NCBI GenBank assembly: GCA_963767925.1
Contig: CAVYGB010000006.1
Location: 224,001-288,000, forward strand
From: an uncultured delta proteobacterium
Lineage (GTDB): Bacteria > Myxococcota_A > Polyangia > Fen-1088
Length of the DNA stretch: 64,000 nt
Direction: 5' to 3'
The notes below the pieces were generated by a model. The model was not told where the DNA came from and made no database searches. It was given only the letters and a program-made list of their open reading frames with translations. Within the stretch, counting starts at the first letter, position 1; each line of letters opens with the position of its first letter. Both the position numbers and the translations under genes were made by a program. Of the stretch, positions 1-60,990 are shown piece after piece.

Positions 1-1068
1 GACGGCGTCGCCCGCGGCGTGGCCCCGCTGGTCGTTGATCTTCTTGAAGTGGTCGACGTCGAGCAGGAGCCCGCACAGCGGGTACCCCTGGCGCTCCGAG
101 CGGCCGATCTCCCGCTCGACCGCCGCGGTGAAGGCCCGTCGGTTCATCAGGCCGGTGAGGGGATCGGTGGCGGCCTGGCGCTGCGACTCCTCCACCAGGG
201 AAGCGATCCGGATGGCCCCCCCCAGCTCGCGGGCGATCACCGCCACCAGCTCGGCGTCCTTGGGGTGGGGCTGCTGGCGCACGGCCAGGACCAGGCGCCC
301 CAGCTTCTCCTGTCCGAGAGTGATGGCCTCGACGATGGGGGGCGCCCCCTCGGCGTCGTCGTAGGCGTCGCGATCCTCGACGGTCAGGGGCAGGATCTCG
401 GGGGCGACGCCGAGGACGGCCTGGGCCTCGGCCAGGGCCCGCTCACGGGCGGCGGGGTGGCAGTGGATGGCCCAGCGGGGCCGCCGATCGATGCAGACGG
501 CCAGCCAGCGGTAGCTGGTCACCCGGGCCACGAACTGCGAGAGCAGGTCGAACAGGCGGGCGAAGGTCTCGCACACGCTGAGGGCCCGCACCTCGGAGGC
601 GATGACCGACTCGAACAGGGCGTTGTCGAGATAGGCGGCGATGCGGTCGCGGATGTCCGGCTCGCCGCCGCTGAGCTGGAAGAACACGTCCTCCTCGGGC
701 GGCCGGGCGGCGATGGCCTCGGCCAGGGCCCGCACCAGCTCGCCCATGCGACCCTGGCCCACGTAGGCCGCGGCCCCCGCCCGCTCGGCCCAGAAGCGGC
801 TGTGCTGGTCGCCGTCGGGCCCGCGCAGGATGGTGGGCACGTGCTGGGTGGCGGGCTCGGCCCGAAGCAGCCGGCAGAGCTGCACGCCCGAGATCCCCTG
901 GGTCCACAGGTCGGCCACCACCGCGGCCGGCGGATCGGCCAGGGCCAGGTTGGCGCCGGCCGCCGGATCGGGCGTGACGGTGACGGAGTAGCCCTGCATG
1001 CGCAGGCGCTCGGCCAGCACATCGCGGTCCTCCGAAGCGTCGACGAGGATGACTGGCTTGCCCGCCAT
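1..1068 (-). CDS. Diguanylate cyclase with atypical N-terminal receiver domain (3' end runs off the window)
   Basis: Not in the ORF track; translated by hand from ATG at 1068 (TGATG overlap with the upstream gene): MAGKPVILVDAS...VVADLWTQGISG (REC-like), then TDPLTGLMNRRAF...LLLDVDHFKKINDQRGHAAGDAV (start of a GGDEF domain). Confidence 0.9.
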   Translation of the reverse strand, partial: MAGKPVILVDASEDRDVLAERLRMQGYSVTVTPDPAAGANLALADPPAAVVADLWTQGISGVQLCRLLRAEPATQHVPTILRGPDGDQHSRFWAERAGAAAYVGQGRMGELVRALAEAIAARPPEEDVFFQLSGGEPDIRDRIAAYLDNALFESVIASEVRALSVCETFARLFDLLSQFVARVTSYRWLAVCIDRRPRWAIHCHPAARERALAEAQAVLGVAPEILPLTVEDRDAYDDAEGAPPIVEAITLGQEKLGRLVLAVRQQPHPKDAELVAVIARELGGAIRIASLVEESQRQAATDPLTGLMNRRAFTAAVEREIGRSERQGYPLCGLLLDVDHFKKINDQRGHAAGDAV

Positions 1069-2003
1069 CACAGAAAGCTCAGCTCCCCGGCGAGCAGGTG
1101 CTCGGTGGTCTCGGTGGGGACGTGGGCGCCCGTCAGGTCCATCGTGGTGAGCGAGAACTCGAGGAACAGGTGGGCGTTGCTGAACACGGCGAAGTCGAAC
1201 ATCAGGGCGGGCGCCGCCCGCCGCGAGCGCAGGATCACCTCCTTGCCCATCACCACCATCGGCAGCCCCAGGTCGATGGGGACGCCGAAGCGGCTGAGCC
1301 GGGCCTTGAGGCGGCCCAGCGTCTGGTTGAGGATCTCGCCCCCCAGATCGCCGAGGGCCTGCGGCGAGGCCTCCTTGCCGGCCAGCACCCGCTCGTGGAT
1401 GCGGCGGAGCTTGCTCTCGGGCGCGTCGAGCACCAGGTGTCCCGACACGCCCGGGCCGGAGAAGGGCAACACCGGGATGATCTCCCCCAGCATGTTGCGA
1501 GTGAGCTTGAGGGAGACGGAGATGAACTGGGCGTCGAGGTGGTAGCCGTCGCGCAGCGTCTCGATGGTGCTCTCGCTGACGGCGTCGACGAGGAAGGCGG
1601 GATAGAAGCGCCGGCTCAGCAGGGCCTCGGCCTTCTCGACGATCTCCAGGCGACCGGCGAAGGCCACCGGGGAGTCGGCGGGGGCCGGGCTCTGGGTCAT
1701 CTCCTCGGGGTGGATCCAGAGGATGGGCAGCTCGGGGTGCTTCTCGTGCACCTTGCGGACCGCCTCGGCGTAGACCGAGTCTTTCATGGTCCCGTCGGCC
1801 ACCAGCAGCGACAGCCAGGGCATGCGGTCGACGGCCCCCACCACCTCCTGGGCGCGGTTTGTCACCGCCACCCGGAAGTCGCTGGCCCGAAGCTTCATGA
1901 CCAGCCAGTGAGGCGGCTGCTGCTCGGGCCGCAGCACGAGGGCGTATTTGCGGGCCATGATCCGCGGGGTGTTCTCGGGGGTCAGGGCCAGCGTCTCGCT
2001 CAT
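1068..2003 (-). CDS. CheX/CheC-like phosphatase with degenerate receiver-like N-terminus
   Basis: C-terminal LGDLGGEILNQTLG carries the E-x-x-N phosphatase motif, followed by IDLGLPMVVMG as in CheX; coupled to the CheY-like gene by an ATGA overlap. Confidence 0.7.
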   Translation of the reverse strand: MSETLALTPENTPRIMARKYALVLRPEQQPPHWLVMKLRASDFRVAVTNRAQEVVGAVDRMPWLSLLVADGTMKDSVYAEAVRKVHEKHPELPILWIHPEEMTQSPAPADSPVAFAGRLEIVEKAEALLSRRFYPAFLVDAVSESTIETLRDGYHLDAQFISVSLKLTRNMLGEIIPVLPFSGPGVSGHLVLDAPESKLRRIHERVLAGKEASPQALGDLGGEILNQTLGRLKARLSRFGVPIDLGLPMVVMGKEVILRSRRAAPALMFDFAVFSNAHLFLEFSLTTMDLTGAHVPTETTEHLLAGELSFL

Positions 2004-37033: not shown

Positions 37034-38902
37034 CTAGGCGAGCTCCGGCATGGAGAAGATCTCCTGAAAGAGCCCGAAGGTCGCGACCACCATCAGCCAG
37101 TCGCTCTCGAAGGGCTGCTTCAGCCGGAAGTTTGGCGCGGAGTACTGGCGCTTGAGCGTCTCGATGAAACCAGGGTCGAAGTAGCCCTGCCGACGGATGG
37201 TGGCCGGCGACAACATGTCATGGATCCACTCGACTCCCTGTTGCAGCATCTCCGGGCTTCCGGGGGCGTACCAGCCGAACTTCTCCCGGCGCTGGATGGC
37301 CTCGGGGAGCACGTCCTTGCCCATCCGCCGCAGGAGATACTTCTCGGTATAGCCACGCAGCTTCAGGTTCGGAGGAATCTTCCGGGCGTATTCGATGAAT
37401 CCGATGTCGAGGAAGGGGTATCGAGCTTCGACGGAGTTTGCCAGTGCCATCGCGTCCCCGTGATCCATGAGGAGGTGGTCGGCCATCCTGAGCTTGAAGT
37501 CGAGGTAGGATCGCTGGTGCACCGGGTGGCGGCCCACGATCCGATCCTTCCGGACCAGGGGGTGTTGCAGGCAGTTGAACTGAGGAAAGGCGCCTTGCAC
37601 CTCCCGGGAGTAGAGCAGTGGCCGCCGCTGCTGGTCGTCGTAGTAGTCGAGCTCGTAGTGGACGTTGGCGTCACCCCAGAGCGCCTCCCGCATCCTCTCC
37701 TCGACCAGCTCGCCGGGTTGGGCGTTGCCCAGGGCCCGTTCGGTCCGGGCCCGGTCGAATCGATAGCCAACGTAGCCGGCGAAGAGCTCATCTGCCCCTT
37801 CTCCGGTCAAGATGACCTTTATCCCCTCCGCCCGGGCGGCCCGCGAGAGCTCCATGGAGCAGGTGTTGTAGGTCTCCTTTACCGGACACTCGGCGTGATA
37901 GATCATGGGTCGCATCAGACTGGCCGCCCGGTTCCAGTCGAAGCGCGCGCTGTGCAACTGGCAACCCACCTGGTCGGCCATGAGCTGCTGGAATCGCTGC
38001 TCGTCGGCGCGCTGGTCGGCGAAGGTGATCGAGAAGGCGTGGCGGCCAAGGCCTGGCTCGATCTGGCTGATGAAGGCGGCCGTGAGCGATGAGTCCAGCC
38101 CCCCGCTAAGATAGAAGCCGACCGGCACGTCGGCCTGCAGGCGATAACGAACCGAGCGGGTGAATGCCTCGGTCAAGCCCTCGAGATACTTCTCCTCGGG
38201 TTCATCGGGCTGATCGGCCGCCGCGGGGTAGTCCAGGTCCCAGTACTCGTGATCCTGGACTCCCTGGGCGTCGACAAGCAGGTAGTGTCCGGGAGCGAGC
38301 CGCTGAATCCCCTTGAAGACGGTGCGCGGGCTGACCAGCCCCGGAAAGGTCAGGATCTGGTCGAGGCCGGTCAGGTCCACCTCCCGCGAAACCGCGGGGT
38401 GCTTCAAGATGGCCTTTATCTCCGAGCCGAACACGAAGGTCCCCTTGGCGGTCGTGAAATGCAGGGGCGCGATGCCGACGTGATCGCGGGCCAACATCAA
38501 CCGCCGCCGGGTGCGATCCAGCAGGGCAAAAGCGAACTGTCCGTTGAGCTTTCGCACCATCTCGGGTCCGTGCTCTTCATAGAGATGGACCAGCACCTCC
38601 ACGTCGCACTGGCTGCGGAACCTGTGACCGCGGGCCTCCAGCTCCGCGCGCAGCTCCTTGTAGTTGTAGATCTCGCCGTTACAGACCACGGCCACCGACT
38701 CGTCTTCATTGAACAGCGGCTGGTCGCCGGTGGTCAGGTCGATGATGGCCAGACGACGAAAGCCCAGGGCCACGTAGGTGTCCTGAAAGGACCCGTCCGC
38801 GTCAGGCCCGCGATGTCGGAGGGTCTCGGCCATCCGTCCGATCAAGGAGGGGTCGGATCGAGCACCGGTGCCCATATCGAAGTATCCAGCAATTCCGCAC
38901 AT
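37034..38902 (-). CDS. asnB: Asparagine synthase (glutamine-hydrolysing) / amidotransferase
   Basis: N-terminal MCGIAG, HRGPD, RRLAIID, NGEIYN, LSGGLDSS, TGEGADELFAGY. Confidence 0.95.
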   Translation of the reverse strand: MCGIAGYFDMGTGARSDPSLIGRMAETLRHRGPDADGSFQDTYVALGFRRLAIIDLTTGDQPLFNEDESVAVVCNGEIYNYKELRAELEARGHRFRSQCDVEVLVHLYEEHGPEMVRKLNGQFAFALLDRTRRRLMLARDHVGIAPLHFTTAKGTFVFGSEIKAILKHPAVSREVDLTGLDQILTFPGLVSPRTVFKGIQRLAPGHYLLVDAQGVQDHEYWDLDYPAAADQPDEPEEKYLEGLTEAFTRSVRYRLQADVPVGFYLSGGLDSSLTAAFISQIEPGLGRHAFSITFADQRADEQRFQQLMADQVGCQLHSARFDWNRAASLMRPMIYHAECPVKETYNTCSMELSRAARAEGIKVILTGEGADELFAGYVGYRFDRARTERALGNAQPGELVEERMREALWGDANVHYELDYYDDQQRRPLLYSREVQGAFPQFNCLQHPLVRKDRIVGRHPVHQRSYLDFKLRMADHLLMDHGDAMALANSVEARYPFLDIGFIEYARKIPPNLKLRGYTEKYLLRRMGKDVLPEAIQRREKFGWYAPGSPEMLQQGVEWIHDMLSPATIRRQGYFDPGFIETLKRQYSAPNFRLKQPFESDWLMVVATFGLFQEIFSMPELA

Positions 38903-38919
38903 GACTTCTCCTGACTCCG

Positions 38920-39471
38920 TCAGACGGCGATGGCCCGGCGGAGCTCCGCCCCTTGCCGGCAGAGGTCGGGGAGCAGCTCGAGTTGCTCCGCTTTCACTTC
39001 CGCTGCCACCGCCCGCTGAAGCATGGTCACCGAAACGATCACCCGGAGCCGCTCCCGAGTCGCGAGCAGGACCCCCTCGAGACCGGCGAGCGGGCCGGCG
39101 ATCACCCGCACCCGCTGGCCGACCCGCAGGGAGGCGGGCTCGGCGGGTACGCCCAGCTCGACGATCCGGCGAACCGCCTCCACCTCCGCCTCGGGGACGG
39201 CGAGGGGAGCATTGTTGACGCCCAGCAAGCGAATAACGCCGTTGACCTGGATTATCCGGTGAGGGTTGTCTTTGGCGTAACGGCAGAACAGATATCCCGG
39301 AAACAGCGGCAGGCGGGCTCGCTCGTTCCCGAGGGCGCCGCGCGGGCGGTACAGCGGCAGGAACTGTTCGTAGCCATGGCGGCTGAGCTGTGTGGCGACG
39401 ACCCTTTCGTAGTTGGTGCGGACCAGAACCGCTATCCAATCACCTTCGCGGCAGCTACGTGAATTCAGCAT
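38920..39471 (-). CDS. NusG paralog (RfaH/UpxY/LoaP/TaA-like antiterminator)
   Basis: NGN domain WIAVLVRTNYE..FLP..PLFPGYLF; KOW GQRVRVIAGPLAGLEG. Confidence 0.9.
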   Translation of the reverse strand: MLNSRSCREGDWIAVLVRTNYERVVATQLSRHGYEQFLPLYRPRGALGNERARLPLFPGYLFCRYAKDNPHRIIQVNGVIRLLGVNNAPLAVPEAEVEAVRRIVELGVPAEPASLRVGQRVRVIAGPLAGLEGVLLATRERLRVIVSVTMLQRAVAAEVKAEQLELLPDLCRQGAELRRAIAV

Positions 39472-40616: not shown

Positions 40617-43600
40617 TCAACCCCCGGTCCGGGCCGCGGCGGCCAGAACCGGAGACAGCTCTGTCGTCTCGTCAGCCCCGGCCAGCGACGCGAGACTGCT
40701 GGCCAGGGCGGCTACGGTCTGGTGCTGGAAGAGCTCCTGGGCGGTCAGTCCGTAACCCATCTCGTTGAGCTGGGACACGATCTGGATGGCCTGGATGGAG
40801 TCGCCCCCGAGATCGAAGAAGTTGTCATTCAGACCGACGTCTTCGACCCCCAGCACGCGCTGCCAGACCTCGATCAGCTTCTGCTCGAGCTCACCGACCG
40901 AAGCGACGATCGGCGGGGCCGAAACGGCCTGCCCCGCCTCCGGGGAGGGTGCGGTCGCCTGGGCGGCGGCAACGGCCACCTGTCGTTCCGACGGGCGCTC
41001 CAGGGCCAGGCGCAAGGAGGCGTGCAGGTCGCGCGCCGAGACCACGACCTGAGGATGACCTTTCAGGAAGGCGAGCCGGCGGAAGGCCTCCGCCCCCTCG
41101 GCCGGGCTGATCCCCTGGGCGAGCTGATCGGCGTAGACCCGGTCGAGGGTCTTCTTCATCGGGCGTCGGGCGGCGGTGTCTTCCCAGCGGCCATACTGGC
41201 GATTGGCGAACGCGCGCACCTGCCCCGTGACGTCGTTGATCCGCTTCTGGGCGAAGGCCTCGATGTCCACCAGCTCGTCGCCCTCGCCGTTCATGAACAC
41301 CACGTCGAAGGTGATGGTCTGACCGGTCGGGTCGACCTCCTCCCGGAACCTCACGTGGACGAAGATCTTCCGCGTGAGCGGGCGGTGGAGCGTCAGTCGG
41401 CGGTAGCCCATCGGCAGGTAGATCCCGCTTCTGATCAGGAACTCCTTGCCTGTCCCGGTCGCCCGATCGAGCAGCGAGGGATGCAGCTTCATCGTGGCGA
41501 GCTCGGCGTTGAACATCTCCGGCAACTCGAGGATCGCCAGGTGCTCGTTCTTTCCCACGTGGGCCTCGCGCAGCGCCTGCCAGCGCGGTCCGAGATCCTC
41601 GTCGCGAGACGAATCGTCGGTGATGACCACGTGCCGGTCGGAGCAGCGGCGCATGAGAGCCTTCAGATCGTGGCGTCGCGGCGCAGTGGCGGGCACGAGG
41701 CGGATCTTCCCGCTGGCATAGTCCTTCCACTCGCGCCCACCCTGCCCGTTGACGCCCTCCCCTTGACCCTCGCTGGCCTGGCTACTGACACGGAAGCTGA
41801 AGCCGCCGGGATCATCTCTCTTGATGGTGGTCCGGACCTCACGTTGCTCGTCGTCCCTCAGCCCGAGGGGCGCCAGGAAGAAGGCGTCCCGGATCTCCAG
41901 GGCGGCGCCGCCGGCATGGCGCTCGACGGCGGCGCGAGCCATCTCCAGGTAGGCCGTGCCCGGCATCACGGCGCTACCGACGATCCGGTGTTCGTCGAGC
42001 ACCCAGTGCGTGCGGGGGCTCACCCGGGTCAGATAGACCTCGGTCCCGTCCGGCCCCTGGCTGTAATGGTCGAGCAAGGGGTGGTCGGACGTCGTCGTCG
42101 TCCCGGGCAGAGACGCGTGTCGGGCCGCCTTGTCCGCGAGCATGCCAACGCCTTTCCAGGCGTCCCAGTTCAGCGAGAGGATCGGGTTCATCGAGTCCCG
42201 GGTGGACGCAGCGAAGACATCGAGGAACGCATTCGCCGCACAGTAGTCGGACTGCCCGAAGCCGCCGAGGATCGCGCTGCGCGATGAGCACGCCACGAAG
42301 AAGTCGAGCGGTGTGTCGCCCAGCAGCGAGGCGAGAAGCCTCGTGCCGGTAACCTTGGGCGCCAGCACGGCCCGTATCGCCTCGCGCGTCTTGAGCTGGA
42401 TCATGCCCCCCCCGGCCACTCCGGCCGCGTGGATCACCCCGTGGATCTCGCCGAACCTCTCCCGGGCTCGGTCGAGCGCGCCGCTCAGCGAGGAGGCATC
42501 GCTCACGTCTGCGCTGAGGACGAGCACTTCCGCGCCCTTCGCCTCCAGCTCGCGCAGCCCCCGGATGCGCGTTGAGGTAACGTCTCCCTCCGGGTGGCCG
42601 TCGAGCCAGGACTGCCAGGTCTCGGGCGAAGGTAGCTCGGACCGACCGATCAGCACGAGCTTGACCGGTCCGGATTCAACCAGGCAACCTGCCAGGGTGA
42701 GCCCGATTCCCCCGAGCCCGCCGCTGATCAGGTAGACCCCGCCCGGCCGGACCCGGAACGAATCGGTCGAAGGCGATGCCAGGGAGGTGTAGGTCGGCTG
42801 CCAGCGATGACGGCCGTAGAGCGCGACTCTCTGCTGCGTGCCGTGCTCGCACTCGGTGACGAGCTGCTCGACCCTGCCTCCCGTCCAGGGTCGGCCCACC
42901 TCGAGGTCGAGGTCGATGTGGCGGCAGGTGAGGGTCGGATACTCCTGGGGGATGACCTGGCAGGCGCCAAACAGGGTAGCGCGCTCGGGCCCAAGCACCC
43001 GATTGCCGATGACGTCGTGGAGCTGGTTTGTCACGAACACGAGGTCGGTGGTCGTGGAATCGGGCAGACGACCGAGCGCCTGGGCCAGGTAGATGGCCGA
43101 CAGCAGGCTCGCGCCCGTCTCTCGCTCGGCCTCACCCTCGGCGGCGACATTGCCGAGGTGAAGAATCCGCGAGGGCCAGCGCCCCTCGGCGCGAAGACCG
43201 TTGAGCAGCCGCTCGTAGCCCTCCGGTCCGGAGGGGTGCAGGGCCAGCTCGCCGTCGACTCGCATCACCTCGATCCCGCGCCGGCTCAGCTCGGCGCCGA
43301 CCGCGTCGGCCAGCCCGTGCGCGTCGGCGAGCAGCAACCAGGGCCCCCGGTCGCTGGCCGTCCTGGACGTCACGAGTGGGCTTCGCTGCCAGGTCGGGAC
43401 ATAGAACCATTGATCGAGATCCGGGCGCTTCTCCAGGGTCTCGAGGGCGGTGTCGGTGGCCGAGGTGGACCCCGGGTCGACCCAGCAACGCTGCCGTTCG
43501 AAAGGATAGCCGGGCAACGTCACGCGCGAGCGCGCTTCGTGCCGGTGAAACCCGCTCCACTCGATGCTCCCTCCCACCATCCACAGCCGACCGAGGGTGG

Positions 43601-46130
43601 TGAGCAGGAAGGCCTCATCGGAGGTAGCCTCGCTGGGGTGTCGCAGGGTGCTCAGGACCACCTGCGCCGCTGCGCGGGCCGGATGGAGGCGGGCGAACGT
43701 GCTGAGGCTGCGCCCGGGGCCGACCTCCAGGAGGACCGAATCGGCCTGGCGGACCAGCTCGGCGAGGCCATCGGCGAACCGGACGGTGTGCCGCAGGTGG
43801 CGTACCCAGTACCCGGGGTCCGTGGCCTCGGCGGCGGTGATCCAGGTCCCGGTGAGGTTGGACAGGTAGGGGCGCTGAGGGGCGTGAAAGCGGGCTCCCG
43901 CGCAGATCTCCCCGAACTCGGCAAGGATCGGGTCGAGCATATGCGAGTGAAAAGCGTGTGAGGTGTGCAGGCGCCGAACCGCCACGCCTCCGGCTCCGAG
44001 CTCACGCTCCAGGCCTTCGATGGCCAGGAGGGGCCCGGACAGCACGCATGATTCGGGGCCATTCACGGCTGCCAGCGAGAGCTGCTTGGACGCCGCCAGC
44101 TCGCGGCAAGCGGCCTCTGTCTGGGGCACCACCAGCATGCCGCCCGGCGGAGCCTTCTGCACGACCCGGCCGCGCAGAGCTACGAGGCGGAGCGCGTCTT
44201 CCAGCGAGAAGACGCCGGCCAGGCAGGCGGCCACGTATTCGCCGATGCTGTGGCCGATCATCGCGCTCGGCTCCAGCCCCCACTCGCGGCACAGCGCCGC
44301 CAGGGCGTATTCGATCACGAACAGCGCGGGTTGAGCCAGCTCGGTCTGGCGCAGCCGCGCGCTGGCCCGGGCCTCATCGACGCCTGCCGCGGGGAAGATC
44401 ACCTCGAGGAGATCGACCCCCAGGATCGGCCGAAGTTGCCGGGTGCAGGCCTCGACCTCACGTCGAAACGTCGGTTCGTGCCGGTACAGATCGAGGCCCA
44501 TGCCGATGTACTGGGCCCCCTGGCCGGGGAACATGAACACGAGGTCCCGTTGCCGGGGCTCGTGAAACCCAGTCCGGCCCAGCGTCGGATCCAGGCTGCG
44601 AAGAGCGCGGCTCGCCTCGTCGCGATCCCGGCAGACGACCATGCGCCGGTGGGGCAGCTGCGCGCGCCCGACCTGGAGGGTGTAGGCGACGTCCGGCAGC
44701 TCCAGGGACTGATCCTGGTCCAGCCGCTCCGCCAGACGGCGCGTGCTCTCCTCGAGAGCCGAGCTCGTCCCGGCCGAGAGAAGGAGCAGTTGCTGGGGGC
44801 GGCTGGCCGACCCCGCCGGGCTGGGCGGGGCTTCCTCGAGCACGAGGTGGGCGTTGGTGCCACCGATCCCGAACGAGCTGACACCAGCACGCAGCGGCCG
44901 GGGACCCTGCCACTCCTTCAGGCTGTCGTTGACCCGGAAAGGGCCTGCCGCGAACGGGATCTCGGGGTTGGCCCGAGAGAAGTGCAAGCTGGGCGGCACC
45001 TGCCGGTGTTGCAGGGCGAGCACGGTCTTGATCAAGCTCGCGACACCGGCAGCCGCGTCGAGGTGCCCCAGGTTGCTCTTCACCGAACCGACGAGACAAG
45101 CGCCGGGGGCGGCGTTTCGGAAGGCTTCATTGAGGGCGGCGATCTCTATCGGATCGCCCATCCGTGTCCCCGTCCCGTGGGCTTCGAGGAAACTGATCGA
45201 GGCGGGATCGACGCCGGAGACGGCGTGCGCCTCGCAGACGACGCGGGCCTGTCCCTCGACGCTGGGCGCGGTGTAGCCGACCTTGCCCGACCCGTCGTTG
45301 CCGATGGCCGAGCCCCGGATGACCGCGTAGATCCGATCGCGATCGGCGAGGGCGTCGGCCAGGCGCTTGAGGACCACAACTCCCGCGCCGTTGCCGCTCA
45401 CCGTGCCCTGGGCCTCGGCGTCGAATGGCCGGCAGTGGCCATCGGGCGACATGATGCCGCCTTCCTCCGCCAGGTATCCGCTGCGCTGAGGTACCGTGAC
45501 CGACGCTCCCCCGGCCATCGCCAGATCACATTCGTGCTGCAAGAGGCTCTGGCAGGCCAGGTGGACCGCGACAAGCGACGTGGAGCAAGCGGTCTGCACC
45601 GTCACCGCCGGCCCCTTGAGGTTCAGGCGGTAGGCCACGTTGGTGGCGACGTGGTCGCCCCGGTTGCGGATCGAGGTCTGCAAGAACCCGCTCGCCTCCA
45701 CGACCTTGCGGTTGCTCAGCAGGTTGTTGAGGAGGTAGTGGTTGAAGCCGACGCCTCCGAAGACGCCGACCGTCTGCTTGCACCTGGCCGGGTCGTATCC
45801 GGCGTTCTCGAGGGCCTCCCAGGCACACTCCAGGAACAGGCGCTGCTGGGGATCGGTGAGCTCCGCCTCCCGGCGGGAGTAGCCGAAGAAGGCGGGGTCG
45901 AAGCCCTCCACGTCCTCCACGATCCCCCGTCGCCGCACGTAGCGGGGGTCGCGCGCCGCGCGCGTCTCCCCCTCTGGCAGCTCCAGTTCCTCGGGGGCGA
46001 AGGTCGCGATGCACTCCACGCCGTCGCGCAGGTTGCGCCAGAAAGTCTCCAGGTCCGGAGACCCGGGGAACCGTCCCGACATGCCGACGACGGCCACCCT
46101 CGGAAGCGAGTCGTCCGGAGCGTTACTCAT
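40617..46130 (-). CDS. Type I PKS module KS-AT(malonyl)-KR with inserted DH-ACP; no TE
   Basis: KS TACSTS/EAHGTGT/NLGHL; AT GHSIG and HAFH; KR GGLGGIG, GQSDYCAAN; DH EHRIVGSAVMP and LHPSLLD; carrier GGDSI. Confidence 0.95.
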   Translation of the reverse strand: MSNAPDDSLPRVAVVGMSGRFPGSPDLETFWRNLRDGVECIATFAPEELELPEGETRAARDPRYVRRRGIVEDVEGFDPAFFGYSRREAELTDPQQRLFLECAWEALENAGYDPARCKQTVGVFGGVGFNHYLLNNLLSNRKVVEASGFLQTSIRNRGDHVATNVAYRLNLKGPAVTVQTACSTSLVAVHLACQSLLQHECDLAMAGGASVTVPQRSGYLAEEGGIMSPDGHCRPFDAEAQGTVSGNGAGVVVLKRLADALADRDRIYAVIRGSAIGNDGSGKVGYTAPSVEGQARVVCEAHAVSGVDPASISFLEAHGTGTRMGDPIEIAALNEAFRNAAPGACLVGSVKSNLGHLDAAAGVASLIKTVLALQHRQVPPSLHFSRANPEIPFAAGPFRVNDSLKEWQGPRPLRAGVSSFGIGGTNAHLVLEEAPPSPAGSASRPQQLLLLSAGTSSALEESTRRLAERLDQDQSLELPDVAYTLQVGRAQLPHRRMVVCRDRDEASRALRSLDPTLGRTGFHEPRQRDLVFMFPGQGAQYIGMGLDLYRHEPTFRREVEACTRQLRPILGVDLLEVIFPAAGVDEARASARLRQTELAQPALFVIEYALAALCREWGLEPSAMIGHSIGEYVAACLAGVFSLEDALRLVALRGRVVQKAPPGGMLVVPQTEAACRELAASKQLSLAAVNGPESCVLSGPLLAIEGLERELGAGGVAVRRLHTSHAFHSHMLDPILAEFGEICAGARFHAPQRPYLSNLTGTWITAAEATDPGYWVRHLRHTVRFADGLAELVRQADSVLLEVGPGRSLSTFARLHPARAAAQVVLSTLRHPSEATSDEAFLLTTLGRLWMVGGSIEWSGFHRHEARSRVTLPGYPFERQRCWVDPGSTSATDTALETLEKRPDLDQWFYVPTWQRSPLVTSRTASDRGPWLLLADAHGLADAVGAELSRRGIEVMRVDGELALHPSGPEGYERLLNGLRAEGRWPSRILHLGNVAAEGEAERETGASLLSAIYLAQALGRLPDSTTTDLVFVTNQLHDVIGNRVLGPERATLFGACQVIPQEYPTLTCRHIDLDLEVGRPWTGGRVEQLVTECEHGTQQRVALYGRHRWQPTYTSLASPSTDSFRVRPGGVYLISGGLGGIGLTLAGCLVESGPVKLVLIGRSELPSPETWQSWLDGHPEGDVTSTRIRGLRELEAKGAEVLVLSADVSDASSLSGALDRARERFGEIHGVIHAAGVAGGGMIQLKTREAIRAVLAPKVTGTRLLASLLGDTPLDFFVACSSRSAILGGFGQSDYCAANAFLDVFAASTRDSMNPILSLNWDAWKGVGMLADKAARHASLPGTTTTSDHPLLDHYSQGPDGTEVYLTRVSPRTHWVLDEHRIVGSAVMPGTAYLEMARAAVERHAGGAALEIRDAFFLAPLGLRDDEQREVRTTIKRDDPGGFSFRVSSQASEGQGEGVNGQGGREWKDYASGKIRLVPATAPRRHDLKALMRRCSDRHVVITDDSSRDEDLGPRWQALREAHVGKNEHLAILELPEMFNAELATMKLHPSLLDRATGTGKEFLIRSGIYLPMGYRRLTLHRPLTRKIFVHVRFREEVDPTGQTITFDVVFMNGEGDELVDIEAFAQKRINDVTGQVRAFANRQYGRWEDTAARRPMKKTLDRVYADQLAQGISPAEGAEAFRRLAFLKGHPQVVVSARDLHASLRLALERPSERQVAVAAAQATAPSPEAGQAVSAPPIVASVGELEQKLIEVWQRVLGVEDVGLNDNFFDLGGDSIQAIQIVSQLNEMGYGLTAQELFQHQTVAALASSLASLAGADETTELSPVLAAAARTGG

Positions 46131-49100
46131 GATCTTCTTCCCTGCCTTTCCTGTTGCGTGCAGATCTGGCTGCGGCGATGCGCTGGTGCGCCCGGCTGGA
46201 GGCGGCCAGGGCCGGCGCCGCGGTGGCCTCCCTTCCGTCCAGGTAGCGGGCCAGCGCCGAGATTGTCGGATTGCGGAACAGCTCCACCATGGGGACATCG
46301 CGGCCGAGCGCCGCCCGGAGCCGGGCGTGAACCTTCACCATGCGAAGCGAATGCCCACCCACGTCGAAGAAGTTCTCCTCGAACCCCACCGTCGGCAGGT
46401 CCAGCACCTCCCGCCAGATCGCCGCGACGGTCTGCTGGGTCGGGGTGCCGCCGGGCTCGCCACCCTCGCCCTGCCCGGGGTGCGGATCGGCGGCGGGCAG
46501 CGTCGCCACATCGAGCTTGCCGTTCGTCGTGAGGGGGAACCGTTCCAGCACCACGAAGGCGCCGGGGACCATGTAGTCCGGGAGCCTCAGGCGGAGGTGG
46601 GCCCGCAGCCGCTCCCTGTTGATCTTGATGCCTGGCCTGGGCACGACGTACGCCACCAGCAGTGCCTCTCCGCTGTCGCGACCGCCTGCCCCGCCGCGCA
46701 CCAGCGCGAGCGCGTCGCGGACCTCGGGCGACCCGCGCAGCGCCGAGGCGATCTCGTCGAGCTCGATCCGGTTGCCGCGAAGCTTGACCTGATTGTCGAG
46801 CCGGCCAAGATAGCGGAGGGCGCCGCTGGCCAGTCGACAGGCGCGGTCTCCGGTCCGGTACATGCGGCTTCCCGGCACGGTCGAGAAGGGATCGACCAGG
46901 AAACGTTCCGCGCTCAGGCCGGGCTGGCCGCGGTAGCCACGGGCCACCCCTGCCCCTCCGATGAAGACTTCACCGGGGGCGCCGAGCGGCTGGGGCGAGA
47001 GGGACCCGTCCAGCACGTAGGTTTGGCAGCCTTCGATGTCGACTCCGATGTTCGACAGCGGGCCGGCCACGCGGGCCGCTGTCGCATCCACCGTGCATTC
47101 GGTCGGGCCGTAGACGTTGAAGAAGGTGGTGGCGTTCCAGCCAGCGAGGGTCGTCCACAGCTCATCGTCGATCGACTCCCCTCCCACCAGCACCGCCCGC
47201 AGACCACGTTCGGTCGAGCGGGTCCAGGCCTCGCAGTCGACGAGGGCCTTGAGCTGGGAGGGCGTGCAATCGAGGACGTCGAGCCGGCGCTCGCGGGCAA
47301 ACCGCCAGAGCGCCTCGGGATCGAGGCGAGCCTCCTCGGGGACCACGTGCAGGGTGTGGCCATCGAGGACCTGGATCCATTGCTTGACCGAAGCGTCGAA
47401 GACGGTGGGGGCGTTCAGGCTCACCTGGCAGGGTCCACCCAGAGGGGCGTACACAAGCCCCCGCAGGGCCTGCAGGAGGTTGACCACCGAGCGATGGCTC
47501 ACCTCCACCCCCTTGGGAGCGCCGCTCGAGCCCGAGGTGTAGATGACGTATGCCAGGTTGTCCGCCGAGCTTCGCGTATCGCAGTTGCTCTCGACGGACG
47601 AGAGGACGTCATCAGGCCCGTCGAGGCAGACCGTGACCAGGCCCGCGAGGGCCGATGATGCCGCCAGGGAGGTCTCGGTCAACACAACCCGGGCTCCCGT
47701 GTCCGCCAGGATGCCGCGCACGCGCCCGGAGGGATGGGCCGGAGAGAGCGGAACGTAGGCCCCTCCAGCCTTGAGCACGCCCAGGATCGCCGCAAGCACC
47801 TGGCTCGATCGGTCGAGAAAGAGCCCGACCGGGGTCTCGGGGCCCACGCCCATCGCGACCAGCGTGTGCGCGATGCGGTTGGCCCAGGCGTTGAGCTGAG
47901 CGAAGCTGAACGAGCGGCGGTGACACGAGGCCGCTGTCCGCGAGGGGGTTCGGGCCGCCTGGATCTCGAACAGCCGATGGAGCGTCGGCACGGGAGACGT
48001 CCGGACCGAAGGGGTCGATCCCGGATCCGCCGCCGGCAGCGGCGTCGCCGCCTGCTGGGGACCCGCCCCGAGGGCCGACGCCATCGCGTCGACGAGCGCG
48101 TGGATATAGGGCTCCTCCGCCGTGCAGGACTGGTAGCTGGCCCGGATCACGAGCTGCTCGGGACAGACCAGGCAGCACAGCTCCAGCCGGGCCGGGCCAG
48201 GATCGATGTAGAGGTCCTCCAGGGAGAAGGTGACGCCGCCCTGCTTTCGCGGTGACGGCCGCTCCAGGTAGCGAAACCCGACCCGCAGCTCGCTGCAGGC
48301 CTGCTCCGGATCGCGGTCGGGCCGAAAATACGGCAGCATCTGGCCGGCTTGCGCCAGGTCCTCCTGCACGTGCGCGGCCCGGCGGGACCGGTCCAGATCA
48401 CGCTCCCCCGAGATCAGCGGCACGGTGGTGGCGAGCGCGCCACAGAGCGCGTCCAGGGCTCCGTCGAACCGTCCCGGGAGGGTGACCCAGGTGGCAACCC
48501 CTGCGCCCTCGGAGAAGCGGAACAGGACCTCCTGCCAGGCCGCCAGCAACCAGGCCTCGACCGAGACACCAGCCTGGCTGGCCCTGTCGCGCAGCCCTTG
48601 CAGAGCGTGAGCGCCGACTCGCCGGTGGAACGTTCCGCCCGGCAAGGAAGGTTGCCCGCTGCTGCCACGGCCCTCGAAGGCGAACTTGACCGCCTGGCTG
48701 CCGGCCCGCTCGCTCCGCTCTTGCCAGTAGCGCCGCCCGGCCTCGCCCTCCTCGGCCACGATCAGGCCTTCTTGCCAGTCGAAGAGCTGGAGCTGCTGCA
48801 ACTCCGCCTCGCCTGGCGAGAACTCCCCGCCAGCACCGACCAACTGGCCGTATGCCGCCGTCATCTCGGCGAACACGATCTTCATGGTCTCGAGGTCGGC
48901 ACAGAGCGCCGGCAGGGTGAGCACGAGGACGTGTCGGCCGGGCCCCCCGGAGATGGAGCGGGCCCGGACGGCCGCGCCCGCCCCGGCTGTCGCCGCCTGA
49001 CGGCGTTCTTCCCGGGCCAGCTCCTCGGGATTCAGCGAGCAAGCGGGCGGCGTCTCGTCCCAGATCGGGGCGGCCAGCGGGGCCACGGTCTGCAGGGGGA

Positions 49101-49329
49101 ACCGCAAGCCAGCCACCGGGTGAAAGCTGGTCCGCAAGGCCGTGTGTCGGGCCATGACGAGCGCGAGGGCAGACCGGAGGGCGTCGGGATCCACCGGGCC
49201 TTCCAGGGAGACGACGGCCTGAGCCAGCGGCGCTTGCCCTGACTCGGTCGCAGCCCACAGGCGCCGCTGCTGCGCCGACAGGGGAAATCCGGCGAGAGGC
49301 CGGGACGGCGCGGCCCCGGGTGTGCTCAC
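46123..49329 (-). CDS. NRPS I(interface, inactive C)-A(Glu)-T
   Basis: C-like domain with LPALCAD in place of HHxxxD; A-domain code read as DAKDLGVVDK; GGHSL carrier. Confidence 0.9.
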   Translation of the reverse strand: MSTPGAAPSRPLAGFPLSAQQRRLWAATESGQAPLAQAVVSLEGPVDPDALRSALALVMARHTALRTSFHPVAGLRFPLQTVAPLAAPIWDETPPACSLNPEELAREERRQAATAGAGAAVRARSISGGPGRHVLVLTLPALCADLETMKIVFAEMTAAYGQLVGAGGEFSPGEAELQQLQLFDWQEGLIVAEEGEAGRRYWQERSERAGSQAVKFAFEGRGSSGQPSLPGGTFHRRVGAHALQGLRDRASQAGVSVEAWLLAAWQEVLFRFSEGAGVATWVTLPGRFDGALDALCGALATTVPLISGERDLDRSRRAAHVQEDLAQAGQMLPYFRPDRDPEQACSELRVGFRYLERPSPRKQGGVTFSLEDLYIDPGPARLELCCLVCPEQLVIRASYQSCTAEEPYIHALVDAMASALGAGPQQAATPLPAADPGSTPSVRTSPVPTLHRLFEIQAARTPSRTAASCHRRSFSFAQLNAWANRIAHTLVAMGVGPETPVGLFLDRSSQVLAAILGVLKAGGAYVPLSPAHPSGRVRGILADTGARVVLTETSLAASSALAGLVTVCLDGPDDVLSSVESNCDTRSSADNLAYVIYTSGSSGAPKGVEVSHRSVVNLLQALRGLVYAPLGGPCQVSLNAPTVFDASVKQWIQVLDGHTLHVVPEEARLDPEALWRFARERRLDVLDCTPSQLKALVDCEAWTRSTERGLRAVLVGGESIDDELWTTLAGWNATTFFNVYGPTECTVDATAARVAGPLSNIGVDIEGCQTYVLDGSLSPQPLGAPGEVFIGGAGVARGYRGQPGLSAERFLVDPFSTVPGSRMYRTGDRACRLASGALRYLGRLDNQVKLRGNRIELDEIASALRGSPEVRDALALVRGGAGGRDSGEALLVAYVVPRPGIKINRERLRAHLRLRLPDYMVPGAFVVLERFPLTTNGKLDVATLPAADPHPGQGEGGEPGGTPTQQTVAAIWREVLDLPTVGFEENFFDVGGHSLRMVKVHARLRAALGRDVPMVELFRNPTISALARYLDGREATAAPALAASSRAHQRIAAARSARNRKGREEDHE

Positions 49330-52300
49330 GGTGCGCCCTCCCGGGGAGCCAGCGCGTCGTGGGGATCGGTCATCGCCACCGCGATCCGCCGGGGCCCGAC
49401 GAACGGGTCGCGCCCGTGGGCTACCAGCATGTTGTCGAGGGCGAGGATGTCGCCCTGCTGCCAGGGAAAGCCCCGGGTCTCGGCCAGGTAGGCGGCGCGG
49501 ATCTCAGCCAGCACCTCCGGCTCGATCTGGCCACCATCGCCGTAGAAGGTGTTGAACGGCAAATCGTGTTCCGTCAGCCCGGAGGCCATCGCTGAAAGCA
49601 CGCGTTCGGGCAGGCTGCTGACGTGAAAGAACAGCAGGTGGTTGAACCAAGTGGCCTCGCCGGTCTCGGGATGGGTTCGCAGCGCCGGGCGGACCTGCCG
49701 GGTGTGCAGGCGCCCGTCGGCGGACCATTGCAACTGGATGTGCGCCCGGCGGCAGTGCTCGGCCACCTTCTCGCGATCGGTGGTCTGGAAAGCTTCGACC
49801 CAGGAGAGGCCGAAATTTTCGCCGTAGTTTCTTACGTAGAGCACCTGCCGCTCGCGGAAACGCGCGATCGTGGCGGGCGTCAGCCGCTTCAGGATCCGCC
49901 GGCTGTCGGCGATCGGCGTGGCGCCGCCTCTCAGCGCCGGCTGCAGGCAGCAGAACCAGATCCGGCGCGGCCACTCGAGGGTGTAGGACTGCTCGTTGTG
50001 CAGGAGGATCGGCTCATCTTCGGGATGGTCCGTCGAGGTGTAGATCCCTGCCGAGATCTCGCTGCGCGGTGAAGACCGCTCGCCGTAGGGAATCAGGGCA
50101 GGAGAGATCCGCTGGACGGCCTTTCGGAAGTCCTCTGCCCCGCCGATGGCGAAGCCGCGAAACAGCAGGGCTCCCTCCCGGGCCAGCCTCTGGCGAATGT
50201 CGTCGACCTGATCGGCCAACCAGGCGGCCAGATCGACGTCGGGCCGCCGCGCCTCGACCAGCAGGGGAAGGGGGTGCTCTGCCTCGAGGCGCCGCATGGC
50301 CACCAGCTCGGAGGGGACAATGGTGGTCGGCCGCGGCCGGGTAGCCCTCAGCCCCTCCAGGAGAGCGGACACACGGGAGCCGGCAGGCTGCCCGGGGGGG
50401 ACGCGGTTGTCATCTTCTCGCATCGAGCGGTTTACCTCCGAGGTCGTGGGGCAGGCATCGGGATCCGTCACGACCGCCTCGAGAACCGAACGCAGATCGG
50501 TGAGGAGCTGTTCGGCGAAGCGACGTTCGAAGATGGAGGCGTAGCGCAGGGAAGCGACGAGGCCCCCCGCACGCGGCACGAACGCCAGGCTGAGATCGAA
50601 GACCGCGCCCTCTGCGTCCATCTCTACCGGCGAGAGGTCGAGCCCGGGCAGGTTCAAGGTCGCTGGCGCGCTCTGCAAGATGACCATCACCTGGAACAGG
50701 GGGTTGCGACCCAGCTCCCGGGGCGGACGCAGGTGCTCGACCACGGCCCCGAAGGGCACGTCCTGGTGTTCCCAGGCCTGCAGCACCACCCTCTTCACCC
50801 GGCCCAGGAGCTCGCGGAAGCTGGGAGCGCCACCGAGGTCAGTGCGAAGCACCACCTGGTTGACCATCAGACCGATGAGCGGCTCGAGCGCGGGGTGATT
50901 TCGACTGGCAAAATCGGTCCCCACGACGATGTCGTACGTCCCCGAGGTTCGGGCCAGCAGCGCCTCCCAGGCTGCCAGCAGGGTCATGAACAGTGTGGCC
51001 CCCTCGCGCCGGCCCAGGGCCTCGATCTCCCGAACCAGCCCCGCGGGCAACTCGATCTTCGCTGTCCCACCCTCGTAGCTGGCGATGCTCCCGTTGCCCT
51101 CGCGCGTGCGGGCCTGGGGCAAGGTGAGCCCGGCCGGCGCGCCCCGAAGCTGGTCCAGCCAGTAGGCCAGACTGCCCGCGAACGCGCCGCTCGTGAGCTG
51201 CTGCCGCTGCCAGGCCACGTAGTCGGGGTATTGCACCTCGAGGGGGGCCAATCCGGGCGCCTGACCCTGGCGGTGCGCGCGGTAGCGCTCGACGAGCTCG
51301 GCGAGGAGGATCCCGATCGACCAGCCGTCGGCCACGATGTGGTGCAGGACCAGAAGGAAGACGTGCTCATCGTCTCCGATCTGGTAGAGGCGGCAGCGGA
51401 GCAACGGCGGCACACCGAGGTCGAAACAGCGGTTCACCTCCGCCCTGAGCAGGGCGGAGAGCTCGCTCGACCCGGGTTCCACTCCCGACTGGCGAAGGTC
51501 GCTGAAAGACAGGGTGGCGCGGACGCCTTCTTCGAGCTGCTGATAGGGGACCCCGCCCTCCTCGCGAACGCTCGTCCGCAAGACCTCGTGCCGGGCGACG
51601 ATGCCCTCCAGGCTGCGCGCGAGAGCGTCGCGATCCAGCGGGCCGCGGAGCCGGACTGCGCCCGCGATGTGGTAGGCGGCGCGGCTGCCGGTGAAGCGGT
51701 CGAGGAACCAGAGGCGCTCCTGCCCGGAGGAGAGCGGCAGCCGGCTCGTCCGCAGCGTCGCATCGAGGCGCGCCGAGGGTGGGCTGGCCCCCGTCTGCCC
51801 CAGCCGGCCGACCTGGGCCACCAGGTCGCGCAGGACCGGATAGTCGAAGGCCCAGCGCAGCGGCACCTCCTTTCCGAAGGCTTCCCGTAGACGGACGATC
51901 ATCTGAGCGGCGGAGAGCGAGTGCCCGCCCAGCTCGAAGAAGCTGGCCTCCGGGCAGATGTCTTCGCGGACTAGCAAGCTGGACCAGACCTGGGCGACCA
52001 CCTCCTCGGCGGGGGACGACAGCGGCGACCGGCGCTGGCCCTGGACCGGTGGCGAGAGCTGCTCCAGCGCCTGCCGGTCGATCTTCCCGTTGGCGGTGAG
52101 CGGCAGCGCGGCCACCGGCAGGAGCAAGGAAGGGATCATGTATTCGGGGAGGTGCCGGCGGAGGTGCTGGCGCAACCTCGCCTCATCGGCCTGCTGGGCC
52201 GGGCGAAACACGACGTAGGCAGCCAGCAAGGGCTCCGCGCCGTCCGGTGAACGCCGGAGATCGACGAAAGCGTCGGCTACCGAGGGTTCGCGCTTGAGCG

Positions 52301-60181: not shown

Positions 60182-60990
60182 CGCTCTTCTTCCTCGGGGC
60201 GGGCGCCACGTTGACTGCCGATGGCCGCGCGCAACTCGGCCGCTACCAACGCCAGCAGCTCGGTCCGACTCGTGTTGACGAAGAAATGGCCACCGGGCAA
60301 AAGGTGCAGACGGAAGGCACCGTTGCCGTGTTCCCGCCACGCCTCGAGCTCGGGGGGGTCGATCCCCCCGTCCGAGAGCCCGCCAAAGGCGGTGATGGGG
60401 CAGCTCAAGGGGGCCTCCTCGAGATAGGCGTAGCGCTCGACCGCCTGGAGGTCTGCTCGTAGCAGCGGCGTCATCACCTCCATGAGCGCGGCGTTCTGCA
60501 GCACCTCGGCCGGCGTGCCCTGCATGCTCGCCAGGGCAGCGACAAAGTCCGCCTCGGGGAGCAGGTGAAGCTCCGGGCGCCGGCGGGGCCGGTGCGGCGC
60601 CCGGTGGCCCGACACCATGACCTGGACCGGTGCTTTCCCTTCCTCACGCCGCCAGCGCCTGGCCAGTTCGAAGGCGACGATCGCCCCCATGCTGTGGCCA
60701 AAGAAGGCGACTGGCCCCGACAGGAACGGTCGCAATCCAACCCACAGATCGTCGATCAAGGCTCCGATGTCCCGGTGAGCCGGCTCGCGAAGGCGCGCAC
60801 CCCGCCCGGCCAGCTCGACGGCCAGGACGTCGACGCCCGCCGATAGCCCGGCGGACCAGGCTCGAAACAGGTGGGCCATGCCCCCGGCGTGAGGAAAGCA
60901 GAAGAGCCGCAGGCGTCCGGCAGGCGCGGTCGCCATCGGATCGATCCTCGTCTGGGGCAGATATCGGGAGAAGAACCGGGGGAGGGTCAT
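60154..60990 (-). CDS. Type II thioesterase
   Basis: LFCFPHAGG, FFGHSMG, LRAD, GGHFF. Confidence 0.93.
   Translation of the reverse strand: MTLPRFFSRYLPQTRIDPMATAPAGRLRLFCFPHAGGMAHLFRAWSAGLSAGVDVLAVELAGRGARLREPAHRDIGALIDDLWVGLRPFLSGPVAFFGHSMGAIVAFELARRWRREEGKAPVQVMVSGHRAPHRPRRRPELHLLPEADFVAALASMQGTPAEVLQNAALMEVMTPLLRADLQAVERYAYLEEAPLSCPITAFGGLSDGGIDPPELEAWREHGNGAFRLHLLPGGHFFVNTSRTELLALVAAELRAAIGSQRGARPEEEERCVHLSQIP

Follow-up and report, generated by a model that had tools for sequence, protein, structure and literature searches.

The DNA examined here is a window of 64,000 nucleotides from an uncultured delta proteobacterium (contig CAVYGB010000006.1 of assembly GCA_963767925.1, positions 224,001 to 288,000 of the forward strand). 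A Pfam scan of the proteins encoded in this window placed a polyketide synthase (PKS) gene within a hybrid cluster of nonribosomal peptide synthetase (NRPS) and PKS genes, and it is this PKS, whose dehydratase (DH) very probably interrupts the fold of its ketoreductase (KR), that is described in the following. The reading frame (40617-46298, minus strand) comprised 1893 unbroken codons, and residues are numbered throughout according to its translation (P0001). The likely start of translation is M57 (window position 46130), which yields a gene at 40617..46130 (minus strand) for a protein of 1837 amino acids (aa); a database entry for the same protein (P0002), also 1837 aa long, agrees with this start, which overlaps the stop of the NRPS gene upstream (46123-49329). 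The 56 codons of the frame that lie 5′ of M57 (46131-46298, minus strand) overlap the end of that NRPS gene and probably contribute nothing to the PKS protein.

By Pfam, the domain order of the PKS was KS-AT-KR-DH-ACP, with all matches far above the curated cut-offs. The ketosynthase (KS) was found at residues 67-440 (44979..46100, minus strand, as for all domains of this gene; PF00109, 2.4e-77, and PF02801, 2.8e-41) and the acyltransferase (AT) at residues 587-861 (43716..44540; PF00698, 1e-50), the latter with GHSIGE and HAFH in the translation. The structural subdomain of the KR (residues about 965-1172; 42783..43406) was delimited by the strands and helices at positions 26-233 of the structural model described below, to which solved KRs aligned from model position 19-24 onward. 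The N-terminal part of the KR catalytic subdomain (residues 1187-1395; 42114..42740; PF08659, 5.1e-50, profile positions 1-179 of 180) contained strands 1-6, the GGLGGIG motif, K1315, S1338/S1339, Y1352, the NWDAWKGVGM turn, and a short helix (1386-1395), the names of the KR elements following solved KR structures; the Pfam match proper (residues 1187-1382) ended ahead of strand 7 of the model. The DH, a double hotdog, came next (residues about 1403-1694; 41217..42092; PF21089, 3.5e-23, and PF14765, 2.3e-17), its Pfam pieces being PKS_DH_N (1406-1507) and PS-DH (1565-1688), and it carried HPLL, H1437 in HxxxGxxxxP, and D1611 in HPSLLD. The chain then leads back to the KR by way of a linker predicted to be flexible (residues 1695-1718; 41145..41216), after which comes the segment that closes the KR (residues 1719-1770; 40989..41144). 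This closing segment was delimited by helices and a strand of the model, by alignments with KR structures, and by a hidden Markov model (HMM) of the tail built from relatives; it comprised the lid helix RVYADQLAQ, GISP, the helix AEGAEAFRRL, the seventh strand QVVV, and then another helix. The acyl carrier protein (ACP; residues 1806-1867; 40698..40883; PF00550, 1.8e-16), with GGDS at 1831, completed the protein. No match to ADH_N or ADH_zinc_N was obtained in P0001 with Pfam, that is, an enoyl reductase (ER) is absent from the module. As is characteristic of cis-AT type I synthases, KS, AT, and ACP reside on one chain, and TACSTSL, EAHGTGT, NLGHL, GHSIGE, and GGDS were all present in the translation.

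A preliminary description of this DNA had listed motifs of the KR, the DH, and the closing segment, in this order. All of them were recovered as listed and in a single minus-strand frame: GGLGGIG (residues 1193-1199, window 42722-42702), HAAGV (residue 1290), GQSDYCAAN (residue 1348), and NWDAWKGVGM (residues 1377-1386, window 42170-42141) for the KR; HPLL (residue 1406, window 42083), EHRIVGSAVMP (residue 1436), and LHPSLLD (residues 1605-1611, window 41486-41466) for the DH; and GISPAEGAEAFRRL (residues 1729-1742, window 41114-41073) and PQVVVS (residues 1749-1754, window 41054-41037) for the closing segment. The Pfam boundaries likewise agree with its account that the DH follows the KR motifs and that the closing segment then leads to the ACP. 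It was also correct in stating that the catalytic His and Asp of the DH are present (H1437 and D1611) and that the Gln/His usually following the Asp is not, the residue four positions after the Asp (D+4) being Gly.

The region comprising residues 940-1790 was modeled with AlphaFold2 from an alignment of 36 sequences (35 relatives, 40-58% identity; model residue i corresponds to protein residue i+939). The overall predicted local distance difference test (pLDDT) score was 82.9 and the predicted template modeling (pTM) score was 0.65. Six strands of the KR catalytic subdomain were located ahead of the DH (model 249-253, 274-279, 318-323, 348-351, 394-400, and 435-439), the sixth being followed by a short helix (447-456). 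The DH was modeled confidently at 464-755, whereas pLDDT fell below 50 at 756-779, the stretch corresponding to the return linker. Beyond the DH, helices at 776-788 and 793-803 and a strand at 811-814 were predicted, with pLDDT rising to 93, 89, and 93 in the blocks from 791 to 820. Thus, the catalytic subdomain of the KR is not continuous in the model: strands 1-6 occupy positions 249-439, the DH positions 464-755, and strand 7 positions 811-814.

The model was compared with 999 PDB chains using VIA-align (the ranges given are those between the first and the last aligned residues). Stand-alone KR chains aligned nearly over their whole length, and only by spanning the DH (model 19/20 to 824-832): the MlnE KR (5d2e) with 433 of 485 residues (Z 35.1, model 19..824), KR1 of DEBS (2fr0) with 444 of 468 residues (Z 34.5, model 20..831, chain 1448..1903), and the PksJ KR (5ktk) with 438 of 452 residues (Z 33.9, model 19..827). 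The two-subdomain KR fold is therefore present, as 433-445 residues were aligned with KR chains of 452-485 residues at Z 33-35. DH structures, in turn, aligned to the insert alone (model 464 to 751/759), among them 7zmf_B with 270 of 279 residues (Z 33.8, model 464..751) and the CurF DH (3kg6) with 264 of 274 residues (Z 32.4, model 465..755). That the insert has a double-hotdog fold is evident from the alignments with the DHs of CurF, CurJ, and CurK, DH1 of PksJ, and Brevibacillus and mycocerosic acid synthase (MAS)-like DHs (Z 30-34, root-mean-square deviation 2.2-2.8, 260-277 residues). A phmmer search with the whole KR-DH region had put the C-terminus of the PksJ KR on the start of the DH; this placement was treated as spurious.

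The site of the insertion was marked by relatives that lack the DH. One of them was reached by a tblastn search of plasmid records with the KR core: WP_017291696.1 (P0122), encoded on plasmid pLBX of Leptolyngbya boryana by a gene that adjoins NRPS genes, was KS-AT-KR-ACP according to Pfam, without a DH. In BLASTP, it was 49% identical to the PKS across residues 57-1389, and a second high-scoring segment pair (HSP; E 8e-22) joined the PKS from residue 1695 onward to WP_017291696.1 from residue 1384 onward. The Pfam match to the KR of this relative ended at residue 1396 and the tail HMM matched at 1408-1450 (E 2.7e-17); thus, its closing segment, QGILPQEGIEAFCRIL..PQVLVS, starts 12 residues later. 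The Leptolyngbya KR and that of the PKS accordingly have the same closing segment, but the PKS has ∼320 extra residues at this site. In representatives of multimodular PKSs, 9 of 14 tail matches were, again, located 1-19 residues past the match of the KR core. The position of the closing segment directly after the KR core in DH-less relatives argues that KRs of this subfamily ordinarily end with GISPAEGAEAFRRL..PQVVVS.

An insertion of ∼320 residues (roughly 1390-1709), consisting of the DH and its linkers and located at the start of the KR lid, between the WxxWxxxGM turn behind strand 6 and the lid helix, is thus supported by the topology of the model, by the structure comparison, and by the DH-less relatives. 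These three lines also bear out the proposal of the preliminary description that the DH is inserted in the lid region of the KR and that the KR is closed after the DH by GISPAEGAEAFRRL..PQVVVS. It had named a complete KR fold ahead of the DH, or an insert other than a double hotdog, as findings that would speak against this proposal; neither was seen in the model or in the structure alignments. The short helix ahead of the DH (MLADKAARHA, residues 1386-1395, window 42114-42143), which phmmer placed on the lid of the MlnE KR, resembles the lid helix after the DH (RVYADQLAQG, residues about 1717-1727, window 41118-41150). Judged from this resemblance, the repeated lid-helix motif on either side of the DH may be a duplication remaining from the insertion event.

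How widely this layout occurs was addressed with a word-indexed search using residues 1180-1790, in which 8000 candidates were scored and 2881 proteins had E values of 0.001 or lower. The best 120 of the 2881, which include the database entry of the PKS itself and cover 86-100% of the region, were taken as the set of relatives; the other 119 were 44-62% identical, and several are named as genomes from metagenomes of the Acidobacteria type (e.g., Candidatus Angelobacter, Pyrinomonadaceae, and Blastocatellia). With BLAST, the KR core and the DH were each detected in 120 of these 120 proteins and the tail in 119; the order KR core-DH-tail was collinear in 119, with a median gap of 324 aa between the end of the KR core and the tail. 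Because the same order recurs in 119 of 120 relatives, the nested layout is not a chance pattern; the nested DH is a heritable design of a protein family and not a local accident.

A 151-residue query covering the junction between KR and DH was used with a library of representatives; 18542 proteins had E values of at most 0.001, 4623 of at most 1e-10, and 199 of at most 1e-30. The best 150 were examined, 146 of which were not already among the relatives. The junction was spanned in a single match by 72 of these 146; the other 74 were mostly giant PKSs in which the KR part was matched repeatedly. At least 330 residues were present downstream in 63 of the 72 junction-spanning proteins, and 60 of these 63 had the tail there, at a distance of either 207-281 residues (55 proteins) or 546-620 residues (five proteins). 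When four of the five long-distance proteins were scanned (P0150, P0180, P0197, and P0253; the fifth is P0193), an ER was located between the DH and the tail in all four. At one and the same KR site, therefore, relatives carry nothing, a DH, or a DH-ER cassette.

Among the named records with the nested order are those of Acaryochloris marina, Ruegeria sp. SCSIO 43209, and Streptomyces sp. NBC_01592, in which the tail was matched with E values of 1e-14, 7.6e-11, and 3.3e-9, respectively, and a query made of DH plus tail matched 35 plasmid records with at least 80% coverage. The same query used on genome contigs gave 368 pattern matches and one confirmed locus, an unrelated match of 67 residues in Aggregatibacter. 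The nesting, for which a search in other NRPS-PKS systems had been suggested at the outset, is thus present in 119 of the 120 relatives and, in addition, in Streptomyces, Ruegeria, and cyanobacterial plasmids.

Some relatives showed further peculiarities. On pREB1 of A. marina, the PKS coding sequence (L034:2966-7963) stops directly after the DH, and the next coding sequence, which overlaps it and is annotated as "zinc-binding dehydrogenase" (L034:7947-9752), contains the ER, the closing segment (matched by the tail HMM at residues 420-451, E 1e-14), and the ACP. From the two sequences, it appears that a second polypeptide supplies the end of the KR fold in Acaryochloris, provided that no frameshift is concealed in the 17-base overlap. 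Beyond the ACP, many of the relatives (P0003-P0121) continue with a luciferase-like monooxygenase (PF00296, MupA/Atu3671 family), with a condensation domain, or with both. For Ruegeria (L035:10408-15078), a neighboring gene encodes the protein with the monooxygenase, and in the PKS module at 40617-46130 neither a PF00296 monooxygenase nor a condensation domain follows the ACP.

A KR that precedes the DH has been noted before. In PMC5490422, the order of the PKS module of ClbB, which belongs to the hybrid NRPS-PKS system for colibactin in E. coli, is printed as KS-AT-KR-DH-ER-T; the relatives with a DH-ER cassette have this order, too. The clbB gene was located in an E. coli record, and Pfam placed the KR of the protein at 2194-2365, the DH at 2401-2653, and the ER at 2704-2996. 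A single BLASTP HSP (29% identity, E 4e-37) connected residues 1186-1672 of the PKS with residues 2190-2645 of ClbB and, thus, crossed the KR-DH junction. ClbB is like the PKS module in its hybrid NRPS-PKS setting and in the KR being located directly before the DH, but its DH is followed by an ER and an NRPS module is joined to it upstream, neither of which the PKS module has. One of the relatives found above, P0197 (C-A-T-KS-AT-KR-DH-ER-tail-ACP), aligned with ClbB in the same order all the way from the KR to the ACP (31.6% identity, E 6e-144); its architecture is that of ClbB, with a tail that could be detected behind the ER. As judged from these alignments, the DH of ClbB is likely nested in its KR in the same manner. 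A KR closing segment after the inserted domains was found both in the PKS module and in the DH-ER relatives, where it follows the ER.

In canonical modules, the DH precedes the entire KR, and an ER, if there is one, is located between the structural and the catalytic subdomains of the KR. The KRs of canonical cis-AT and MAS-like synthases (e.g., KR1 of DEBS, 2fr0; MAS-like, 5bp4; and the modPKS reducing region, 8g7w) have the same two-subdomain fold as the PKS (Z 31-35), the MAS-like DH 5bp2 is a double hotdog like the DH of the PKS (Z 30.2), and the catalytic residues are common to these systems and the PKS; what differs is that the DH of the PKS is placed within the catalytic subdomain of the KR, after strand 6. 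When the KR part was compared with PDB sequences, it matched KRs of trans-AT systems best (bacillaene PksJ, 5ktk and 4j1q; macrolactin MlnE, 5d2e; E 9e-34 to 1e-29), and these KRs also rank among its best structural matches; they, however, are stand-alone and continuous and come from modules with no in-line AT, whereas in the PKS module an AT is present and the KR is interrupted. A KR-DH pair is called specific to the enediyne synthase PksE in PMC9967187. Enediyne synthases (PKSEs) are indeed like the PKS module in that the KR is ahead of the DH in linear order. They are iterative enzymes that end in a phosphopantetheinyl transferase and have their ACP placed after the AT and before the KR. 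In P0001, the sole match to a PP-binding domain was C-terminal (1806-1867), and no transferase domain was found with Pfam, which sets the PKS apart from the PKSEs.

The order KS-AT-KR-DH(-ER) that appears in PMC13126156 is a loose listing of canonical modules. In the searchable open literature, which leaves subscription journals and much of the structural literature on PKSs outside, no description of a DH nested in a KR was found, and the order appeared only as a listing. Thus, the linear order is already in print, but its explicit fold topology and the series of nothing, DH, and DH-ER at one KR site may be undescribed. The term "atypical architecture," which the preliminary description had used, holds with respect to the textbook order; it does not hold with respect to the databases, in which the layout is widespread, or to the literature, in which the linear order has been printed for ClbB. 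That the architecture may alter stereochemistry or regiochemistry, as also proposed there, is a conjecture.

The PKS can with good confidence be read as one NRPS-PKS extension module with the architecture KS-AT-KRstructural-KRcatalytic(strands 1-6)-[linker-DH-linker]-KRcatalytic(lid helix, last helix, strand 7)-ACP. The KR has GGxGxxG (as GGLGGIG at 1193) and the catalytic Lys, Ser, and Tyr, and K1315, S1338/S1339, and Y1352 were invariant in the 36-sequence alignment. The same was true of H1406 (in HPLL), H1437, and D1611 of the DH and of G1729 and G1735 of the closing segment (G790 and G796 in the alignment). From the invariance of the catalytic residues in the aligned sequences, we infer that KR and DH are both active. 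In this case, the KS would accept an aminoacyl or peptidyl chain from the C-A-PCP protein upstream, the AT, whose HAFH motif we take to signify malonyl specificity, would supply a malonyl unit for extension, the KR would reduce the β-keto group, and the tethered DH would then dehydrate the product, leaving an enoyl unit (of the vinylogous amino acid type) on the ACP.

Several observations weigh against this assignment. The DH does not conform to DxxxQ/H, its D+4 residue being Gly, hence altered or reduced activity is possible. Given the pTM of 0.65, how reliably the model positions the DH with respect to the KR is uncertain. The packing of the tail against the KR follows from the pLDDT pattern, the VIA-align end points and residue counts, and homology, not from an inspected interface. 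When the tail alone (residues 1690-1790) was used in a phmmer search of the PDB at E up to 10, three matches resulted, none of them a KR and none convincing, so that the sequence by itself does not place the tail. The KR-ER entry 3slk_A aligned only to positions 24..458 of the model, and the tail HMM, also in a widened version, gave no match in ClbB.

The first of these points leads to the alternative that survives best, if still an improbable one, namely that the DH is nested as proposed but dead or repurposed (as a spacer, an isomerase, or a product-template-like domain), in which case the product would be a β-hydroxy compound or one with a shifted double bond. The D+4 Gln/His is missing not just in the PKS but also in its relatives (Gly in 101, Phe in 12, Ala in 5, and Glu in 1 of 119 motif matches among 121 proteins), the GYxYGPxF motif is shrunk to LGPRW, and the isomerizing DH1 of GphF (6mbf, Z 30.7) is among the structural neighbors. 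However, the invariance of H1406, H1437, and D1611 in the 36 sequences and the presence of the His motif in 117 and of the Asp motif in 118 of the 120 relatives (as found by regular expression) are at odds with a dead DH. So is the fit to the active DHs of CurF, CurK, and PksJ (DH1), with Z 32-33 over at least 262 residues, and the ER that follows the DH in some relatives needs an enoyl substrate.

A KR that is already complete before the DH, the domains being arranged like beads on a string and GISPAEG...PQVVVS being a post-DH linker or an element for docking or dimerization, is very unlikely. It would accord with the match to PF08659 over 179 of the 180 profile positions ahead of the DH, with the lack of KR matches to the isolated tail in the PDB, and with the short alignment of 3slk_A. 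PF08659 stops at the GM turn in canonical KRs too, though, and in the PKS the match is over by residue 1382, short of strand 7 in the model; just six strands of the catalytic subdomain precede the DH in the model; KR crystal chains reach their own C-termini only when the model range extends to 824-832; and in DH-less relatives the segment in question sits 1-19 residues past the KR core. That the order is an artefact of mis-assembly, or of a chimeric contig that joins two PKS modules, can practically be dismissed, as no supporting point was found, the frame of 1893 codons is single and unbroken, and 119 of 120 relatives, on many independent contigs, show this order as well, as do finished plasmid and chromosome records.

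Taken beyond this one module, the interrupted KR might represent a second topology of PKS reducing regions, in which the catalytic subdomain of the KR serves as a scaffold that takes up an optional cassette (nothing, DH, or DH-ER) where its lid begins, and which would span Acidobacteria-type metagenomes, cyanobacteria, Streptomyces, alphaproteobacteria, and probably ClbB; this generalization is tentative, and we consider it rather less likely than not to hold in full. On this reading, a DH tethered to the mobile lid of the KR could couple reduction to dehydration, or it could gate the access of the ACP. The layout matters in practice, because annotation, cutting, and recombination of PKSs depend on domain boundaries. 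Should the KR have its last helix and strand only after the DH or DH-ER, constructs designed after the textbook order, domain swaps, and exchanges of the "reductive loop" would truncate the KR throughout the family, of which ClbB is probably an affected member. The presence of nothing, DH, or DH-ER at one KR site, in turn, would constitute a natural set of junctions for engineering, and the split KR of Acaryochloris, if true, would be an unusual case of a single Rossmann fold built from two proteins. For the window alone, the result is modest: an ordinary module for β-keto processing, with an enoyl unit as its likely product.

Within the source genome, the long PKS frame was confined to the PKS at 40617-46130, and no second KR of the PKS type was found among 27 matches to short-chain dehydrogenases/reductases. 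Downstream of the PKS, genes for an ABC ATPase, an asparagine-synthase-like protein, a racemase, two A-PCP proteins, a stand-alone C domain, and a MacB-type exporter were present. In the asparagine-synthase-like open reading frame (37034-39439, minus strand, 801 aa), the earliest Pfam match began at residue 212, which reflects either an unexplained N-terminal extension or an over-long call of the reading frame from a TTG start. On the other side, the NRPS gene immediately upstream of the PKS (46123-49329) was accompanied by two further NRPS genes (49326-54971, minus strand, and 54968-60340) and a thioesterase gene (60154-60990). At its C-terminus, the NRPS encoded at 49326-54971 carries a dioxygenase domain of the TauD/TfdA type (residues 1567-1864, E 2.9e-44), which suggests that a tethered amino acid may be hydroxylated.

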